From Bacillota bacterium (GTDB lineage Bacteria > Bacillota > JAAYKD01), in assembly GCA_963666425.2 (NCBI GenBank), contig OY762825.2:2176001-2240000 (forward strand): a stretch of 64,000 nucleotides of DNA, read 5' to 3'. Below, one piece after another: positions 12,630 to 54,941 of the stretch. Made by a program: the position numbers and the translations under genes. The first letter of the stretch is position 1, and each line of letters begins with the position of its first letter. Below the pieces are notes generated by a model. It did not search any database and was not told the DNA's origin. It worked only from the letters and a program-made list of their open reading frames with translations.

Positions 12630-12770
12630 TTGACAAAGTCGAGCAAAGCAATTAGAATAAGTAACAGATCGTAGACAGCAGGTACACTTTTGTTTAAATA
12701 CCCTGCCGAGGTCGGAAATGTCGCTGATTATTAGCGGTATCCGTCTGTCTGCGGATGCCGCTTTTTCTAT
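12630..12770 (+). promoter_or_regulatory. rplJ promoter and L10 leader
   Basis: TTGACA-17-TAGAAT (12630-12658), then AGACAGCAGG...TTAA...CCTGCCGAGG and a downstream GCGG/CCGC-T tract. Confidence 0.8.
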
Positions 12771-12876
12771 AGCATGAATGATGACGAGCGCCTCAGGACA
12801 GTTGCTGTTCAGCTAGCTTTCCATTGCGTTTGCTATTGTTAAAGTGAATTTTGCAAAATAAGGGGGTGTATGTAAG

Positions 12877-46583: not shown

Positions 46584-47432
46584 ATGAAACCATTGATCCT
46601 GATCACGGGGGAAGACGAATTTGATCCCAAATCGCACAACCCATTTTATCTGATTAAGCGCAGCTATGGCACGGCAGTGGCCGGCGCGGGCGGCACGGCC
46701 GTGATGCCGCTGGACCCGGCGCAGTGGGCGAGTTATGCCGAAATGGCGGATGGATTGCTGCTGACCGGCGGCGTGGATGTCCATCCGGCACGTTATAATG
46801 ATATCTTTATGGATTACGATCCGAATTCCGGAGCACCGGCGCCTTTTGTTATCAGCGTCACCCGGGATTCCATGGATATCCTGCTTTGCCAGGCATTTTT
46901 GCGGGCGGGTAAGCCAATCATGGGAATCGGACGCGGTTTGCAGGTGATCAATGTCGTTTTAGGCGGCACGATGGTCCAAGATATTGCGATTTTACTGCAG
47001 CAGGAACACCCGATTGGCCAGCACCACTGGGTTTCCACTACAGCCGGCAGTCAAATGCAGCAATTACTGGGAGAGAAGCTGGAAGTAAACAGTTATCATC
47101 ACATGGCAGTCAAGACGTTGGGTAATAATCTCAGCGTCAGCGCCTGGTCCGAAGATGGTCTGATCGAAGCCATCGAACATACCAGCCTGCCTGTTTTTGC
47201 GGTGCAGTGGCATCCGGAGACTTATCACACTGACGACGAAGAAATTCGAGCCCTGCATGCCGGTGTGACAGAACCGATCATGACGCTGGATGTCGAAGAA
47301 CTCGCAAAGCAGATCACGGCGACCGAACATAAAAAAGCCATTCCGGGTACTAAGACCGATGCGGATGTGGAATTGCCAACCGATAACGCATTGTTTAACT
47401 ACTTTATTGCTTTATGTCAAAAGGAGGGCTAA
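46584..47432 (+). CDS. Peptidase C26 / PuuD-like class I GATase-fold protein A1, nucleophile Cys replaced by Gly
   Basis: DGLLLTGG.DVHP..Y, PIMGIGRGLQ.INV..GG, VNSYHH, AVQWHPE. Confidence 0.85.
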   Translation: MKPLILITGEDEFDPKSHNPFYLIKRSYGTAVAGAGGTAVMPLDPAQWASYAEMADGLLLTGGVDVHPARYNDIFMDYDPNSGAPAPFVISVTRDSMDILLCQAFLRAGKPIMGIGRGLQVINVVLGGTMVQDIAILLQQEHPIGQHHWVSTTAGSQMQQLLGEKLEVNSYHHMAVKTLGNNLSVSAWSEDGLIEAIEHTSLPVFAVQWHPETYHTDDEEIRALHAGVTEPIMTLDVEELAKQITATEHKKAIPGTKTDADVELPTDNALFNYFIALCQKEG

Positions 47433-47436
47433 TAAA

Positions 47437-48162
47437 GTGAAAAAACCGATTATCATGATCATGTGGGGCTCTTGTTTGGAGAATCAGTTTCTCTCTCATG
47501 CTAATATGCTGACCAAGGCCTACAGCGCGGCGATTACCGCCGGCGGCGGCATTCCGCTTTTGCCGCTGGTGCAAAGTCAGGTGAAGGAATATGCCAAGCT
47601 GGCCGATGGTTTGCTGCTGCCGGGTGCGATGGGCTACTCGCCCAAACCGGAGCTGGCAAAACACCTGGCAGCAGAGCGTTTTTCACGTCAATCGGATTTT
47701 GAGAGTGAATTGTATCAGGCTTTCAAGGCCGCCGGCAAACCGATCCTGGGGATTTGCGCCGGCTGCCAGAAAATGAATTGTGAAGAAGGCGGCACTTTAC
47801 AGCTTGATTTTCGAAAAATGTTTGGTATAGAACATAGTGTCGGTGTGACGCATGCGGTAGATGCGGTCGCCGGCTCGCTGCTGAATGAAATTTGGGGTGA
47901 GCATTTTTTCATCAACAGTTATCATGGCTTTCGCATCGCGCAATTAGGTAAAGGTTTTAGAATTACAGCCTATTCGCCGGAAGGGATTCCCGAGGCGATT
48001 GAGCATCAGGAATTGCCATTCTACGGAACACAGTTCCATCCGGAGCGGATGCGCGGTGATTTTCCCAATCCACCGGAAGGGCCCAATTCCGATCCTCTTT
48101 TCCAGCGCTTTGTTGAATTGTGCGCCACGGCTGCGGCTCAGAACGAACTGCACGGGTGCTAA
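47437..48162 (+). CDS. Peptidase C26 / class I GATase-fold hydrolase B1 (Cys-His-Glu intact)
   Basis: DGLLLPG, PILGICAGCQ, INSYH, GTQFHPE; GTG start after an AAGGAGG inside the A1 3' end. Confidence 0.85.
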   Translation: MKKPIIMIMWGSCLENQFLSHANMLTKAYSAAITAGGGIPLLPLVQSQVKEYAKLADGLLLPGAMGYSPKPELAKHLAAERFSRQSDFESELYQAFKAAGKPILGICAGCQKMNCEEGGTLQLDFRKMFGIEHSVGVTHAVDAVAGSLLNEIWGEHFFINSYHGFRIAQLGKGFRITAYSPEGIPEAIEHQELPFYGTQFHPERMRGDFPNPPEGPNSDPLFQRFVELCATAAAQNELHGC

Positions 48163-48239
48163 AGAGACGTTCGTTCTCGCGTGGATGGTTGCAGCTTTCG
48201 CGTAAAATGATTTAAAAAACAGAGAATGGAGTGAATGAC

Positions 48240-49091
48240 TTGAAACCATTGATCCTGATCACGGGGGAAGACGAATTTGATCCCAAATCGCACAACCCAT
48301 TTTACCTGATTAAACGCAGCTATGGCACGGCAGTGGCCGGCGCGGGCGGCACAGCCGTAATGCCACTGGATCCGGTGCAGTGGGCGAGTTATGCCGAAAT
48401 GGCGGATGGTCTGCTGCTGACCGGCGGCGTGGATGTCCATCCGGCACGTTATAATGATATCTTTATGGATTACGATCCGAATTCCGGCGCACCGGCGCCT
48501 TTTGTTATCAGCGTCACCCGGGATTCCATGGATATCCTGCTTTGCCAGGCATTTTTGCGGGCGGGTAAGCCAATCATGGGAATCGGACGCGGTCTGCAGG
48601 TGATCAATGTCGTTTTAGGCGGCACGATGGTCCAGGATATTGCGATTTTGCTGCAGCAGGAACACCCGATTGGCCAGCACCACTGGGTTTCCACCACAGC
48701 CGGCAGTCAAATGCAGCAATTACTGGGAGAGAAACTGGAAGTAAACAGTTATCATCACATGGCAGTCAAGACGTTGGGAAAGGATCTGAGTGTCAGCGCC
48801 TGGTCCGAAGATGGTCTGATTGAAGCCATCGAGCATACCAGCCTGCCTGTTTTTGCGGTGCAGTGGCATCCGGAGACCTATCGAACCGATGACGAGGAAA
48901 TTCGAGCCCTGCATGCCGGTGTGACAGAACCGATCATGACGGTGGATGCCGATGAACTCGCAAAGCAGATCACGGCGACCGAACATAAAAAAGCCATTCC
49001 GGGTTATAAGACCGATGCGGATGTGGAATTGCCAACCGATAACGCATTGTTTAACTACTTTATTGCATTATGTCAAAAGGAGGGCAAATAA
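48240..49091 (+). CDS. C26-like protein A2, Cys->Gly (near-identical to A1)
   Basis: Same motifs as A1; TTG start after GGAGTG. Confidence 0.85.
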   Translation: MKPLILITGEDEFDPKSHNPFYLIKRSYGTAVAGAGGTAVMPLDPVQWASYAEMADGLLLTGGVDVHPARYNDIFMDYDPNSGAPAPFVISVTRDSMDILLCQAFLRAGKPIMGIGRGLQVINVVLGGTMVQDIAILLQQEHPIGQHHWVSTTAGSQMQQLLGEKLEVNSYHHMAVKTLGKDLSVSAWSEDGLIEAIEHTSLPVFAVQWHPETYRTDDEEIRALHAGVTEPIMTVDADELAKQITATEHKKAIPGYKTDADVELPTDNALFNYFIALCQKEGK

Positions 49092-49092
49092 A

Positions 49093-49809
49093 GTGAAAAA
49101 ACCGATCATCATGATCATGTGGGGCTCTTGTTTGGAGAATCAGTTTCTCTCTCACGGTATGATGCTGACCAAGGCCTACAGCGCGGCGATTACCGCCGGT
49201 GGCGGCATTCCGCTCTTGCCGCTGGTGCAGAGTCAAGTGATGGAATATGTCAAACTGGCCGATGGTTTGCTGCTGCCGGGCGGCATGGGTTATGTGCCGC
49301 GGCCTCAATTGGGAAGACATCTGGCAGCAGAACGCTTTTCACGTCAATCGGATTTTGAGAGTGAATTGTATCAGGCTTTCAAGGCCGCCGGCAAGCCGAT
49401 CCTGGGGATTTGCGCCGGCTGTCAGAAAATCAATTGTGAAGAAGGCGGCAGCCTGGAATTGGACTTTCGACGGAATACCGGCATAGAGCATCATATGGGC
49501 AGCAGCCACGCTGTAAAAGCAGCTGCGGGCAGTTTATTTGACCAATTGTTTGGTGATCATTTCCGCATCAACAGTTATCATGGTTATAAAATCAGCCAAT
49601 TGGGTGAGCAGCTAAAAGTGACGCTGCTGTCACCGGAAGGAATTCCCGAGGCGATTGAGCATCTGAAATATCCTATTTTTGGCACGCAATGGCATCCGGA
49701 GCGGATGCGCGGTGATTTTCCCAATCCACCGGAGGGCCCGGATACAACAGTGCTCTTCCGTCATTTCATTCGATTGTGTGGGGATCGACGGGATCAAGAG
49801 CAAGCTTAA
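49093..49809 (+). CDS. C26-like hydrolase B2 (Cys-His-Glu intact)
   Basis: PILGICAGCQ, GTQWHPE; C-terminal half diverged from B1. Confidence 0.85.
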   Translation: MKKPIIMIMWGSCLENQFLSHGMMLTKAYSAAITAGGGIPLLPLVQSQVMEYVKLADGLLLPGGMGYVPRPQLGRHLAAERFSRQSDFESELYQAFKAAGKPILGICAGCQKINCEEGGSLELDFRRNTGIEHHMGSSHAVKAAAGSLFDQLFGDHFRINSYHGYKISQLGEQLKVTLLSPEGIPEAIEHLKYPIFGTQWHPERMRGDFPNPPEGPDTTVLFRHFIRLCGDRRDQEQA

Positions 49810-50328
49810 GAAGAAGAAAACAAATAGTACGCCAGCGATAAAAGCTCGGTAGAATGCTGCAGTCCAAAGAGGTAAAGAATACAAAAGCTGGATCCTGGCA
49901 GCAATTCCAAGCAAAAAAACTTGTCATAAATTTACATATACATACGATTTATCAGAAACAGAAATTAAACAGGTCAATGAAATTAATTAGTTCTAAATAA
50001 AGCAACATTCAGCCAATTTTTCGAGCATCTAAAGAATAATATTAGCTAAATTTTATAAAAATGCAGAATGCTGCAAACCGACATTTACCAAAATATGTAA
50101 TTAATACAACATAATTTTCAAAATAAATAAGATCATCAAAGGCACCCCGACGAACTCTACGTTTAAAATGCATATCCGACAGAAAGAAATAGTATTAAAA
50201 AAAAAGGAATTCGATATGTGGTTGCATAATGAATAAGAAGACAGATTTCTGTCAATGGTTGTTCTATTTCGAATGGAATCGATGTGCGACCCGAATAAAA
50301 CGGAATGCATTAAAGGAGGAGTGTTGCG

Positions 50329-51660
50329 ATGAAGACAGGAATTGTAGGTCCAAAGATTACTGTTGAGAGAATCATATCGAACTTGGAAACCAAAAAACTC
50401 TTTGTTGAATATGTTCCCATCATTTATGAAAAACTGCAGGATGCTGTGGCACTGGTACGAGCACATATCGGAGTCGTGGATAATTTTTATTTCACCGGTC
50501 CGATACCGTACCACTATATCCGGACAAAAATGACCTTGCCATGTCCGGTGGAATACCGTACGGTAGATAGTAATGCCTTTGTTGTGATGCTGTTTCAAGC
50601 CAATTATCATTTTCACTGTGATATCAAAAAGGTGACTGCAGATTTTTACGATAACACGAACCTTGCCAAAGCTTATAACCTTTTAGAAATACCCGCTTCC
50701 CAAGTAAAGATCCTGGAAGCGCAATATGATATTTTCGACAATGAGTATCCGGAAAAAAACGCGGAATTTCATATTGCCAACATTGCGGAAGGAAATGCAA
50801 ATTTCTGCCTGACCGGAACCGAGCGAACTTACGAAATACTGAAAGCAAAAGGTTATCCCGTTATTATGGCCCAGCCTTCTCAGGAGCAGCCGGAAATGCA
50901 GATCAATCAGCTGCGCTTGCGTAATGTGATGGCTTTACGGGATGAAAATGAATCTTCAGTTATTTCTATCGCGGTGGAATATGGTGTTGAACAGGAAGGT
51001 GCCATTACCACCGAGCTGCAGAATTATCAGATCCGCGGACAGATTATGGAGAAGATTTATTATTACGCTCAGAGATTGGATGCGGCAGTGGAAAAGCAGG
51101 AGAATGGTGACCTGATCTATCGCATCTACACCACCAAATCGATTCTCAGCGATGAAACCAGCGGCTACCGCAAACTGCGCTTGTTGGATGAATTGCCGGG
51201 TCTCTTTGGGGTCGTCAAAGTCGGCATTGGCATCGGCCTTGGTGAGACGACGGCAGAAGCGAAGAGGAATGCTGATTTTGGCTGTGAACGGGCGAGTAAT
51301 TACGAAACCGACTGCTTCTTTATTGTCTATGATGACCAGAAAATCGCTGGGCCGATCATCCAGACCGAAGTGGTCAAAAAGAATGAAGAAATTAATGGCG
51401 AACTCTATTTAATCTCCCGGGATACGCAGGTGGGTTTGGATAAATTGATCATTATCGATGCAGTCCTCGACCAATATGGGGTTGATGTGATCACCCCGGG
51501 AGAATTGGCACGTTTATGCGAATTGCCTCTGAACAGAGTGAATCGTCTGATCACCAAATTAGAATCATCGGGTTACGCTAGAGTCATCGGCAAAAAGCCG
51601 TTGAATGGTTCGGGTCGTCCCAGCCGTCTCGTCCAAATTAACCTTAAAAAGCGGATTTAA
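50329..51660 (+). CDS. Putative ligand-responsive transcriptional regulator with C-terminal winged HTH
   Basis: ITPGELARLCEL...RVNRLITKLE..GY...GRP wHTH; central VGIGIG.G.T..EA segment like degenerate cyclase/GGDEF-like domains; RBS AAGGAGG. Confidence 0.72.
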   Translation: MKTGIVGPKITVERIISNLETKKLFVEYVPIIYEKLQDAVALVRAHIGVVDNFYFTGPIPYHYIRTKMTLPCPVEYRTVDSNAFVVMLFQANYHFHCDIKKVTADFYDNTNLAKAYNLLEIPASQVKILEAQYDIFDNEYPEKNAEFHIANIAEGNANFCLTGTERTYEILKAKGYPVIMAQPSQEQPEMQINQLRLRNVMALRDENESSVISIAVEYGVEQEGAITTELQNYQIRGQIMEKIYYYAQRLDAAVEKQENGDLIYRIYTTKSILSDETSGYRKLRLLDELPGLFGVVKVGIGIGLGETTAEAKRNADFGCERASNYETDCFFIVYDDQKIAGPIIQTEVVKKNEEINGELYLISRDTQVGLDKLIIIDAVLDQYGVDVITPGELARLCELPLNRVNRLITKLESSGYARVIGKKPLNGSGRPSRLVQINLKKRI

Positions 51661-51672
51661 TCCGCTTTTTTG
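51646..51672 (+). terminator. Terminator overlapping the regulator stop codon
   Basis: AAAAAGCGGAT-TTA-ATCCGCTTTTTT. Confidence 0.7.
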
Positions 51673-51879
51673 GTTGTTTTGGCAGAGGGTTTCGATGATA
51701 CAAAAACAAAATCATGCAAGGGAGGGTTGTAGCGGTATTGCCGAGTTCAATTTTTAATCGGAATTATTCGTTGAGATCTTATTATCGGCAGCAATGTGTA
51801 AAATGAAAAGAAATGATGGAATCAAGACAGCTCTTGTAGGGACAAACTGTCTGACAGAACTCAGAATGGAGGATTTGAT

Positions 51880-52665
51880 ATGACCATTATTCCAGGGAAG
51901 ATTTTTTCCTTTCTCGTCCTGATCGTGCTGAGCATAATAACGGTTTACATGATTAAGAGGATGCAGACGAGCAGTGAACCGGTGGATGTTCGTCGTTTAG
52001 CCGGATTGGATGCGCTGCAGGAAGTGGTTGGCCGTGCTACGGAAACCGGACGCCCCATCCATTACAACCCCGGCATGGGTTCCGTTGAAAGCGCCAGTAC
52101 CGGCGCACGTGTTTTGGGCGGTATGGAAGTTTTGGGCTGGCTGAGTAACCAATGTGCCCGCTATGATACACGCTTGATTTCAACTTACTGTGCACCTTCC
52201 ACTTACGCAATCGCGCGCGAAGTCATTCGGAACGGATACGTGCAGGCAGGAAAACCAGAAAGTATGAATGAAGAAACCGCACAATTTTTATCCAGCGACC
52301 AAATGGCATTTGCTATGGGCGCAGTATCCATTATGCAGCGGGAACGCATCGCCTCTAATGTGCTGATCGGCAGCTACGGCGCAGAATGCCTGCTGTTGGC
52401 GGAAGCCGGCAATACCCTGGGCGCGATCCAGATTTCCGGTGATACCAATGCTTACCAATTGCCTTTCCTGATTGTTACTTGCGACTATTCTTTGATTGGT
52501 GAAGAGCTCTTTGCCGCCGGCGCCGTTTTGAGCAACAATCGCGATGTTTACGGTTCTTTGATTGCGCAGGATTACGGTAAATTGGCCGCTGTGGTCTTGA
52601 TCATCGCCGGCAGTGTGATGGCGACCTTCGGCAATACGGTTTTAACAAAATTATTCAGTTGGTAG
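51880..52665 (+). CDS. Uncharacterised membrane protein, DUF6754-like (TM-soluble domain-TM)
   Basis: N- and C-terminal hydrophobic helices; RRLAGLDA..E.VGRATE.GRP, E.LLLAE.G, QLPF...CDY.LIGEELFAAGA, GSL.AQD motifs that I recall from DUF6754-annotated proteins. Confidence 0.7.
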   Translation: MTIIPGKIFSFLVLIVLSIITVYMIKRMQTSSEPVDVRRLAGLDALQEVVGRATETGRPIHYNPGMGSVESASTGARVLGGMEVLGWLSNQCARYDTRLISTYCAPSTYAIAREVIRNGYVQAGKPESMNEETAQFLSSDQMAFAMGAVSIMQRERIASNVLIGSYGAECLLLAEAGNTLGAIQISGDTNAYQLPFLIVTCDYSLIGEELFAAGAVLSNNRDVYGSLIAQDYGKLAAVVLIIAGSVMATFGNTVLTKLFSW

Positions 52666-52678
52666 GAGGTGAGCGTAA

Positions 52679-53299
52679 ATGAAAAGAACAGTTCCGTTGA
52701 TCATTGCCTTTATAGTTGGTATGGGTTTATTGTTGGATAACTTTATTAAACTTACTCCGTTGAATACTTCCATGGTGACTTTGCGTTCCTGGCTGGTTAT
52801 CATTGCCTTGTTTTCCCTGATGGTGGCAGCGCTCAACCTTTTAATGGTGCATATCCCACGGATCATCAAACGCAAAGGTACTTGGTCACAGAGTATTGTC
52901 CTGGTTACTTTTATGCTGCTGACCATTATTAGCGGTATTTTCATCGGTACCAAAGGGACAATCTATCAGACTCTTTATACCGGTATTATGACGCCGGGCG
53001 GTTCTACCGTCAATGCGTTATTGGCCTTCTTTATTGCTTCCGCAGCAGTGCGGACCTTCCGGGCTAGAAATCTGGAATCCACACTCCTCTTGATTACTGC
53101 CATTATTCTGATGTTATCCAATGTCACCATTGGTAATGCGATCAGTCAGTACATTCCCGTTGTTGGTAATTGGATCACCAATGTACCGAATGCGACTGCA
53201 CAGCGGGGCTTGATTATTTCCAGTTCACTGGCCTTTGTCACCATTAACTTAAGAAATATCCTCGGCTTCAGCACCCAGTGGCTGGGCGGCAAAGATTAG
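52679..53299 (+). CDS. Uncharacterised polytopic membrane protein (operon gene 2)
   Basis: About 6 hydrophobic segments; LLAFFIASAA.R.FRARN motif; AGGAGG RBS. Confidence 0.75.
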   Translation: MKRTVPLIIAFIVGMGLLLDNFIKLTPLNTSMVTLRSWLVIIALFSLMVAALNLLMVHIPRIIKRKGTWSQSIVLVTFMLLTIISGIFIGTKGTIYQTLYTGIMTPGGSTVNALLAFFIASAAVRTFRARNLESTLLLITAIILMLSNVTIGNAISQYIPVVGNWITNVPNATAQRGLIISSSLAFVTINLRNILGFSTQWLGGKD

Positions 53300-53311
53300 G
53301 GGGGCGGGCAG

Positions 53312-54154
53312 ATGAAAAAGTTTAACATCTTCGATCTCGATAAAAGAATTACTTATCTCTTACTGCTGATTATGATTGTTTTCCCCTTGCTCTATCCGAT
53401 TGGGATTGCCATCAAACCATCGGAAAACACCATCCTTGCCTATAATTATGTGGAATCCTTAAAACCAGGTTCTTCCGTCATTCTCTTTATTGACTTTGGC
53501 ATGGGCAATAGTGCAGAACTGACACCGCAGGTGATCGCTTCTTTAAAACACTTTGCCAGGAAAGACCTGAAAGTATATGCCGCTACGCAAGTGCCGGAAA
53601 TGGCGACCGCCCTTGAATCGTATTTGGAGCAGACTTATGGGGCAGCAGGCAAGGTCTACGGTGAAGATTATATCGACCTAGGCTACTTTGCCGGTGCAGA
53701 ATCTGCCATCGGCGCCATGGGTGATAGCCTGATTGCTGTCTTTAAAACGGATAGCAGAGGCACTGATCTGACCAAGATTCCGATGATGAAATCTGTTGTG
53801 AAATTGCCTGATATTAACGTGGTTTTTGCTGTGACGGCATCCGGCACAATTCCATTCATCCGTCAGTGCAATGCCAAGTTCGGTATGCCGATTATTTTCT
53901 CGGTCAATGCCGTCATGGGACCTGCCAATGTACCTTATGTTCAATCCGGACAAGCGGTATCCGTGCTGGTAGGTAGTCCCGCTGCCGCGCAATATGAAAC
54001 GATCATCGGCGAGCCGGGTGTAGCAACTGCCGCCATGGATGCGCAATCGCTGGCTCATGTTATCATCATTCTTTTGATTGTTTGGGGTAATATTGGCTAT
54101 TTTGTGGAAAAACGTCAAAAGCAAGCAAAAAAATCAGAAGAAAAGAAAGCCTAA
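53312..54154 (+). CDS. Uncharacterised membrane protein (TM-soluble alpha/beta domain-TM; operon gene 3)
   Basis: D.RI.Y N-terminal TM, K.YG.DY..LGY.AG, AA.YE, AMDAQS..H, GNIGY motifs. Confidence 0.75.
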   Translation: MKKFNIFDLDKRITYLLLLIMIVFPLLYPIGIAIKPSENTILAYNYVESLKPGSSVILFIDFGMGNSAELTPQVIASLKHFARKDLKVYAATQVPEMATALESYLEQTYGAAGKVYGEDYIDLGYFAGAESAIGAMGDSLIAVFKTDSRGTDLTKIPMMKSVVKLPDINVVFAVTASGTIPFIRQCNAKFGMPIIFSVNAVMGPANVPYVQSGQAVSVLVGSPAAAQYETIIGEPGVATAAMDAQSLAHVIIILLIVWGNIGYFVEKRQKQAKKSEEKKA

Positions 54155-54166
54155 GGAGGTGCACTA

Positions 54167-54781
54167 ATGCAAATCAGTAATAATCCTGTCGTTTGGTTGG
54201 CCGCCTTTGTTACGGTCTCGATCCTCAGTTTCGTTTTCTGGAATGACAGTCCGTTTTATAAATATGTGCAAAGCGCTTATTTAGGCGTAGCTGCTGGTAT
54301 CACGGTGGTGGTTGGCTGGGGCAATATAAAAAGTCAGGTGATTGCTCCTTTAGCAAAAGGTGACTACAGCATGGTTGTGCCGATTATTTTCGGCTGCCTC
54401 CTGCTGATCCGCTTTATTCCCGGTTTAAATTGGGTCGCACGATATCCGGTCGCAATCTTAGTCGCCGGCGGCGCCGGCCTAGGCTTGGCCAATACCGTGC
54501 AGGCACAGTTTGTCAGTCAGATCAAAGCTGCTTTACTGCCTCTCAACAACATCAATAATCTGATCATGTTTGTCGGTTTAATCGCGGTGATTGCCTTCTT
54601 TTTCCTGACCGGTCGGACCACGCATGCGATTGAGAAATTTAAACTTGGTTGGCTGACCTATCTTGGCCGCCTCGTTTTGATGATTGCTTTCGGTGCAGCC
54701 TTTGGTACCACGGTCATGGGACGCTGTTCCATACTGATTGGCCGTATGCAGTTCCTTTTGACCGATTTACTCGGTTTATAA
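54167..54781 (+). CDS. Uncharacterised polytopic membrane protein (operon gene 4)
   Basis: About 6 hydrophobic segments; SF...D.P.Y, GR..LM..FGA.FG.TVMGR motifs; AAGGAGG RBS. Confidence 0.75.
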   Translation: MQISNNPVVWLAAFVTVSILSFVFWNDSPFYKYVQSAYLGVAAGITVVVGWGNIKSQVIAPLAKGDYSMVVPIIFGCLLLIRFIPGLNWVARYPVAILVAGGAGLGLANTVQAQFVSQIKAALLPLNNINNLIMFVGLIAVIAFFFLTGRTTHAIEKFKLGWLTYLGRLVLMIAFGAAFGTTVMGRCSILIGRMQFLLTDLLGL

Positions 54782-54802: not shown

Positions 54803-54843
54803 GAACATCCTTCCTCTTACTAAAGAGGAAGGATGTTCGTTTT
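54803..54843 (+). terminator. Intrinsic terminator closing the four-gene membrane operon
   Basis: GAACATCCTTCCTCTT-ACTA-AAGAGGAAGGATGTTC-GTTTT. Confidence 0.85.
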
Positions 54844-54941
54844 ACGGTAATCAGCAGAAAATGCAGGAAAGCAGCGGATCCGACACGAATTAAAAAGCAT
54901 CGCTCATGCTTTTGAGTGAAATACGAACTTGGAGGTTCTTC

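Follow-up and report, generated by a model that had tools for sequence, protein, structure and literature searches.

The closest described counterparts of the four-gene membrane operon reported here are the Pfam family DUF6754 (PF20539), several types of multi-component importer, and the GlmL/MutL protein of the glutamate mutase operon. DUF6754 spans bacteria and archaea, has no function assigned and covers one of the four subunits, the other three being without a curated model. The importers are those of the energy-coupling factor (ECF, group II), phosphotransferase system (PTS), tripartite ATP-independent periplasmic (TRAP) and tripartite tricarboxylate (TTT) types. GlmL/MutL gives its name to family PF13941, in the hydantoinase branch of the actin-fold ATPases (acetate and sugar kinases/Hsc70/actin, ASKHA). 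The operon lies in the genome of Bacillota bacterium GCA_963666425.2 on the forward strand of contig OY762825.2, within a stretch of 64,000 nt (positions 2,176,001-2,240,000) that was analysed as a whole and is called the window below. Its genes, g1 to g4 (subunits A to D), were confirmed to be one copy of a conserved, uncharacterised four-protein membrane module, far beyond a chance arrangement. No characterised system shares the architecture of this module or its candidate energising partner. The operon is tentatively interpreted, at a confidence just short of probable, as one copy of a modular solute importer that is served by a shared GlmL-like ATPase pair.

The four genes are g1 (51880..52665, 261 aa, DUF6754), g2 (52679..53299, 206 aa, a polytopic membrane protein with about six hydrophobic segments), g3 (53312..54154, 280 aa, a Rossmann-like domain between two transmembrane (TM) helices) and g4 (54167..54781, 204 aa, polytopic with five to six hydrophobic segments). 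All are on the plus strand, co-directional and separated by 13, 12 and 12 nt, and a purine-rich ribosome-binding site (RBS) was read from the sequence before each start codon (GGAGGA, AGGAGGTG, GGGGGG and AAGGAGGTG, g1 to g4). A terminator-like hairpin of 11 pairs followed by a T run (51646..51670, plus strand; hairpin scan) stands at the end of the upstream regulator-like gene, leaving a leader of 210 nt before g1. The likely operon terminator (54803..54844, plus strand) is a perfect 15-bp hairpin (54803-54838) with a 6-nt loop followed by GTTTTA; it begins 22 nt past g4 and was read by eye, being unlisted by the hairpin scan (only four T follow). An earlier note on this DNA had described four close-packed genes, each with an RBS, between terminators, and the coordinates, gaps, RBS and hairpins were all found as it gave them. 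The TM-soluble-TM layout that it proposed for g1 and g3 and the polytopic nature of g2 and g4 likewise agree with hydropathy (four to six hydrophobic segments in g2 and g4) and, for g1 and g3, with AlphaFold2 models.

The source genome contains four DUF6754 genes, each heading a complete g1-g2-g3-g4 cassette, plus one orphan g3. By profile and paralogue comparison the cassettes are the window copy, a second one at C1:1465204-1468196 and a tandem pair at C1:1104427-1111612. Comparison of the diverged cassettes pairs each gene with the one in the same position and with no other, at 30-44% identity. A species-level search (one genome per species) returned at least 604 DUF6754 loci, of which the best 78 were analysed with profiles from the source genome's four paralogues of each gene. 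These best 78 loci span Bacillota, Symbiobacterium, Zixibacteria, Poribacteria, WOR-3, Elusimicrobia, Planctomycetes, Methanomethylicia, Bathyarchaeia and other groups. The co-occurrence and gene order that had been put forward for checking are conserved across bacteria and archaea, all four genes standing in order in 70 of the 78 loci, all from other genomes; four more loci are cut by a contig end with the order consistent so far, and one has the permuted order g2-g3-g4-g1. Complete cassettes total 84 in the 78 loci, with two or more in 13 loci, often two to three in tandem. Among 41 related genomes, g3 and DUF6754 were present in an identical set of 11, and paralogue numbers among the relatives reach 11-13 per genome of 2-4 Mb. 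DUF6754 was absent from all 14 model control genomes, which would explain why the module is unstudied.

Searches of Pfam and NCBIfam do not place the module in a characterised family. The membership of g1 in DUF6754, as previously proposed, was borne out (PF20539, E 8.5e-74, 248.4 bits against a cut-off of 27, model positions 10-257 of 257), and no family was matched by g2, g3 or g4. None of the four proteins matched a signature of the ATP-binding cassette (ABC), TRAP, TTT, PTS or major facilitator superfamily (MFS) transporters in these databases, as the earlier note had also read from the sequence. This holds for TRAP DctP/Q/M and TTT TctA/B/C at E up to 0.01, for the ECF components (S component, EcfT and EcfA/A') and for ABC_tran or related families, with no ABC component encoded between the two terminators. 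Against PDB sequence profiles, none of the four subunits gave anything better than E 1.2, g2 giving nothing below E 4.5 and g4 nothing at E up to 10. In the ESM Atlas, g2 and g4 belong to unnamed clusters only. No paper on the module, DUF6754, PF20539 or PF13941 was found in a literature search whose scope lay outside subscription journals and preprint supplements.

Protein g1 has a Rossmann-like alpha/beta domain placed between an N-terminal TM helix and a long C-terminal one (AlphaFold2, pLDDT 94.3). It is the most conserved subunit, with the lowest mean column entropy of the four (1.70), and it is also the most conserved in 10 of 13 adjacent tandem cassette pairs. Near-invariant patches cover residues 41-60 and 181-220; the near-invariant polar residues are E48, R52, T54, E55, Q193 and D202, with C201 and Y203 nearly so. 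The first helix is trailed by basic residues. In other phyla g1 carries a signal-like helix and 100-900 extra residues N-terminal to the DUF6754 body, and fibronectin type III (fn3) domains were found ahead of the TM helix in such long forms (two of 12 scanned above the Pfam cut-off, one below it). The short Bacillota-type g1, including the window copy, has no external domain. The DUF6754 domain is therefore placed in the cytoplasm, given the basic residues after helix 1 and the N-terminal signal-like helix and fn3 extensions of the long forms. Structure searches with g1 and g3 (Foldseek, VIA-align) returned flat lists of generic Rossmann folds (KTN/RCK, sirtuins, short-chain dehydrogenases/reductases (SDRs), MT0777 and ACDS epsilon) with Z scores of 8-10.7, a range described by the search tool as a common arrangement. 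The soluble domains of both proteins superpose on RCK/KTN domains (Z 8.2-9.9, root-mean-square deviation 2.7-4.6 Å over 114-140 residues); however, these matches are tied with SDRs, sirtuins and glycosyltransferases and reflect the general Rossmann arrangement only, and no TrkA_N match was found in Pfam. Three loci (L029, L045 and L055) have a long g1 without detectable g2-g4, and in L045 two dockerin-like small proteins come next.

Protein g3 has a basic, cytoplasmic N-tail, a TM helix, the Rossmann-like domain (about residues 36-240), a long TM helix and a basic C-tail. Its AlphaFold2 model (pLDDT 95.7) has only generic Rossmann matches (best Z 10.1). The domain is placed outside the cell, because basic tails flank both TM helices and because a CARDB surface domain lies inside an ectodomain insertion of one relative. 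It is the most variable subunit (mean column entropy 2.19), chiefly across the ectodomain, the membrane-proximal end being conserved, and the least conserved gene in nine of the 13 adjacent tandem cassette pairs. The twin cassettes A1 and A2 of the source genome share 98% identity in g1, 95% in g2 and 97% in g4, but only 74% in g3. Grouping of the family at 50% identity gives 5,654 clusters, 4,616 of them at E 1e-10 or better. Relatives with an unusual ectodomain (P0065, P0116, P0082, P0134, P0141 and P0026) were found; insertions of 54 to about 550 aa occur at one fixed site of the ectodomain, at about position 113 of the profile and about residues 110-119 of the window g3, and in P0026 the ectodomain is duplicated. 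The orphan g3 of the source genome (296 aa, C1:2286251-2287141, equivalent to L102:14251-15141) adjoins an M20-like peptidase and has no g1, g2 or g4 nearby, and related genomes tend to have one g3 more than DUF6754 matches (five against four in G000-G002). This pattern of conservation is as expected of a specificity receptor on a conserved core, and g3 is the candidate cargo receptor. Subunit fusions were considered and rejected: the longer g3 forms are N-terminal extensions, ectodomain insertions or duplication, and none is joined to g1, g2, g4 or the GlmL-like pair.

The invariant columns of g2 are P6, A122, R125, R176 and G196. The sole recurring weak Pfam signal among the relatives of g2 and g4 is TMD0_ABC, which matches 14 of 73 g2 relatives below threshold (best E 2.7e-4) but not the window g2 itself; g4 has no recurring weak family. 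An A-B-A'-B' duplication as the origin of the cassette was rejected, the hhalign probability being 0.8% for g2 against g4 and 4.8-11% over 63-81 columns at equivalent positions for g1 against g3, neither of which is significant.

A candidate energising partner is encoded beside part of the cassettes. A Pfam search of 262 open reading frames (ORFs), the two nearest to either end of each cassette block, showed a PF13941 protein in 13 loci. Profiles from the source-genome copies detected a GlmL-like gene in 18 of the 78 loci and a partner gene (340-470 aa) in 20, always paired (fetched flanks, within 9 kb). Ten genomes of different lineages were then chosen that have a locus without a GlmL-like gene among the two nearest ORFs. 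All ten encode the long GlmL-like form (open frames of 601-632 aa). Nine carry a single copy of it alongside 1-8 copies of DUF6754, and in two of the ten genomes it lies no more than about 6 kb from a cassette. Among the related genomes the long form occurs in 10 of the 11 that are DUF6754-positive and in none of the 30 that are DUF6754-negative, ten of which have only PF13941 forms of 443-491 aa. The adjacency across phyla is stronger evidence for the link than this contrast among relatives. Like GlmL/MutL of the glutamate mutase operon, the cassette-linked protein belongs to PF13941 over its full length; it differs in being about 150 aa longer (about 600-630 against about 460 aa), in always having the 340-470 aa partner and in not lying beside B12 mutase genes in the scanned loci.

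The source genome contains five PF13941 paralogues (C1:733047-734435, 1038614-1039993, 1182665-1184062, 1945897-1947288 and 2275836-2277263), each with a homologous partner ORF. Two gene orders occur, namely GlmL then partner, or partner, an ORF of 270-290 aa and GlmL. The pair closest to the cross-phylum type (C1:2275788-2278815) follows the window cassette at a distance of 45 kb and is separated by 8 kb from the orphan g3, the other four pairs being diverged. Its GlmL-like protein has 624 aa (C1:2275788-2277662) and matches PF13941 over the full length with E about 1e-125; its partner has 373 aa. Weak matches of the GlmL-like partner to biotinyl/lipoyl-type barrels and of the PF13941 proteins to hydantoinase/oxoprolinase families (Hydantoinase_A) were recorded. 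As a separate observation, L071:1690-3804 encodes a GlmL-like protein with an N-terminal fusion to a GntR helix-turn-helix, directly 5' of two tandem cassettes.

In the proposed mechanism, the external Rossmann-like domain of g3 would bind the cargo and set the specificity, the polytopic g2 and g4 would form the membrane pathway, and the conserved cytoplasmic domain of g1 would couple the membrane unit to the GlmL-like ASKHA protein and its barrel-sandwich partner. Several cassettes would probably share the single GlmL-like pair at C1:2275788-2278815, in a manner resembling the common energising module of ECF transporters or of the PTS. The earlier note had called the complex ATP-independent, which is doubtful because the cassette co-occurs with the long GlmL-like actin-fold protein and its partner (nearby in 18-20 of the 78 loci and in all ten further genomes).

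Independence of ATP would hold if the module were a self-contained, ion-gradient-driven, binding-protein-dependent importer resembling TRAP and TTT systems, the GlmL-like pair then being just a frequently co-located catabolic enzyme. Such a secondary carrier would accord with the lack of an ATPase in the cassette, with a source genome in which no GlmL-like gene adjoins any complete cassette, with the 58 of 78 loci that have neither a GlmL-like gene nor the partner in the fetched flanks, and with the weak matches of PF13941 to hydantoinase/oxoprolinase proteins, ATP-dependent amide-cleaving enzymes that fit a catabolic role. It is nevertheless regarded as distinctly unlikely in view of the long GlmL-like gene found in all ten tested genomes that lack one among the two nearest ORFs. 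As this gene is usually single-copy, against several cassettes with differing neighbours, a shared machine part fits better than a cargo-specific enzyme. A pure secondary carrier would have no evident use for the cytoplasmic domain of g1, the most conserved subunit, and the invariant columns include few of the conserved acidic residues within the membrane that ion coupling should call for. The module resembles TRAP and TTT systems in its variable external receptor subunit, its orphan receptor genes and an operon without an ATPase. It differs from them in that g3 has just one Rossmann-like lobe, held in the membrane by a TM helix at either end, whereas their receptors are two-lobed and soluble or lipid-anchored, and in that g1 is an extra conserved cytoplasmic subunit.

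With ECF (group II) and PTS systems the module has in common that many diverged membrane units (1-13 per genome) stand against one or few cytoplasmic partners encoded in trans. There is, however, no relation in sequence or family, the partner here has an actin fold and is neither an ABC ATPase nor a phosphotransfer chain, and the sharing is inferred from copy numbers alone. It is conceivable, if somewhat unlikely, that the cassettes and the GlmL-like pair constitute an unrecognised class of primary transporter, in which interchangeable four-protein units, every one having an external receptor (g3) of its own, would dock through the invariant cytoplasmic domain of g1 on a shared actin-fold ATPase as the power source of import. 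Such a class would add a third means of energising uptake to ABC ATPases and ion gradients, and it would be widely distributed among uncultured bacteria and archaea.

Upstream of the window cassette lie four Peptidase_C26 genes (46584..49809, plus strand; class-I glutamine-amidotransferase-like, of the gamma-glutamyl hydrolase type; PF07722 E 1.9e-48 and 2.5e-34 for the two that were scanned). They derive from the tandem duplication of a 1,656-bp unit made up of one long and one short gene, the first 300 nt of the copies being 97% identical. GIGRGLQ in the long type (282 and 286 aa) corresponds to GICAGCQ in the short type, HPE being kept in both; the cysteine at the nucleophile position of class-I amidotransferases is absent from the long type, and the two types may be an inactive-plus-active pair. 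Two or three C26 genes stand directly upstream of the orthologous cassette in four of four related genomes, whose cassette proteins are 68-96% identical to those of the window, whereas the remaining neighbours of the cassette vary. No hydrophobic signal-like segment is present at the N-terminus of the C26 proteins, whose substrate would therefore need to be taken up by the cell. On the basis of this conserved synteny and the apparently cytoplasmic location of the C26 proteins, a gamma-glutamyl or similarly amide-linked amino-acid or peptide derivative is suggested as the cargo of the window cassette, which would be cleaved in the cytoplasm by the C26 hydrolases after import.

Between the C26 genes and the cassette, a regulator-like protein of 443 aa is encoded (50329..51660, plus strand). 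It has a sub-threshold C-terminal winged helix (HTH_24, E 0.0044, 17 bits, below the cut-off of 21.9) and no NCBIfam match. Just two of the four related genomes have retained the orthologous regulator and the HAD, HD and M20 genes that lie downstream. Of the regulator-hydrolase-transporter layout into which the operon had originally been fitted, the hydrolase part recurs in all four relatives, as C26 genes, and the regulator part in two. A new uptake complex for amino-acid or peptide derivatives had been proposed on that layout: the module is indeed uncharacterised, and an uptake role is plausible for this copy, since it fits the paralogue expansion, the variable external subunit, the orphan g3 and the conserved place behind the C26 hydrolases.

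Several points weigh against an importer with a shared GlmL-like ATPase. Actin-fold ATPases are not known to power solute transport, and the GlmL-like pair might rather be an enzyme that metabolises the cargo, of the hydantoinase/oxoprolinase type. Proteins g2 and g4 show no likeness to any transporter family in Pfam, NCBIfam or PDB profiles and no transporter-like internal repeat when their halves are compared by hhalign (best probability 17%). The fold matches of g1 and g3 are generic and therefore give no indication of cargo or ATPase binding. Gene g1 occurs alone, without g2-g4, in three of the 78 loci, and one DUF6754-positive relative (78% complete) gave no PF13941 match. Because the relatives are kin, the contrast of 10 of 11 against 0 of 30 genomes represents few independent events. 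The C26 synteny comes from a single taxonomic family and may reflect inherited linkage. An enrichment of peptidases and amidohydrolases near the cassettes, another check that had been proposed, failed its distal control: such ORFs make up 26 of 262 proximal ORFs against 7-9 of 82 distal ones in the same loci, about 10% in both, and therefore show no proximity gradient.

The failed hydrolase enrichment would also be in keeping with an envelope or surface machine for the export, insertion or anchoring of polymers or proteins, or with a trans-membrane sensor, in which the actin/Hsp70-fold protein would be a motor or chaperone acting on the cytoplasmic domain of g1, while the work outside the cell would fall to g3 and to the fn3 domains of g1. 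The actin-fold proteins known to dock on membrane systems (PilM on PilN/O, FtsA, MreB on RodZ) belong to assembly machines and not to importers, and to this may be added the fn3-type surface domains in long g1 forms, the CARDB domain of the g3 relative, and neighbours that include PMT-type glycosyltransferases (L063, L072 and L078), dockerin-like proteins (L077) and a GH57 enzyme (L035). This alternative is considered unlikely: the 11-13 diverged copies per small genome, the tandem arrays, the orphan g3 and the fast-evolving ectodomain are typical of nutrient uptake and would be uncommon in envelope machines, the window cassette keeps its place behind cytoplasmic hydrolases in four of four relatives, and the short Bacillota-type g1 has no external domain.

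Directly upstream of g1, two archaeal-type loci (L023:6997-8890 and L053:6855-8808) encode a biotin carrier protein together with an OadA-type carboxyltransferase, in the position where a Na+-pumping decarboxylase would have its membrane subunit. These neighbours, the weak biotinyl/lipoyl-type matches of the GlmL-like partner, the ATP-dependent amide-activating enzymes among the PF13941 relatives (weak Hydantoinase_A matches) and the near-invariant polar residues of g1, which would suit a catalytic or ligand site, could together be read as a membrane-bound enzyme or group translocation system, in which the GlmL-like protein would use ATP to activate the cargo on entry, by phosphorylation or in another way, and the g1 domain would be part of the catalytic site. 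Such a system is judged very improbable. The fold matches of g1 are generic and no enzyme family stands out among them, no catalytic motif of a known family was found in Pfam, NCBIfam and PDB profile searches, and the two archaeal-type loci may be one independent observation.

Should the importer interpretation be correct, the up to 11-13 copies in genomes of 2-4 Mb suggest that the module may be a main nutrient gateway of these organisms, in which case metabolic reconstructions of many uncultured lineages miss a major uptake route. If the actin-fold ATPase drives the module, this would be a new principle of membrane transport. The reach of DUF6754 (at least 604 loci) extends over many bacterial phyla and at least two archaeal lineages. 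Experimental handles are provided by the C26-tied cassette, which narrows the cargo to the gamma-glutamyl type, by the twin cassettes that differ mainly in g3, and by the orphan g3.

The leaders of the cassettes were compared with Rfam for signs of riboswitch or T-box control. No match was found in 49700-52000, which includes the leader of the window cassette, at E up to 1, nor for the leaders of the twin cassettes A1 and A2 at the same limit. There was no match at gathering score upstream of any cassette in the source genome and no Rfam element upstream of the cassette in 13 Bacillota-type loci. The twin cassettes A2 and A1 are each preceded by a gap of about 1 kb (L005:9538-10497 and L005:13614-15002), where unknown leaders or mis-called g1 starts are possible. 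Three RNA elements unrelated to the cassettes were recorded, namely an L10 leader within the window at 12651-12776, a T-box at L006:16728-17004, 5.5 kb downstream of cassette B, and a tandem glycine riboswitch at L005:18773-18994, downstream of a PBP gene near cassettes A1 and A2.

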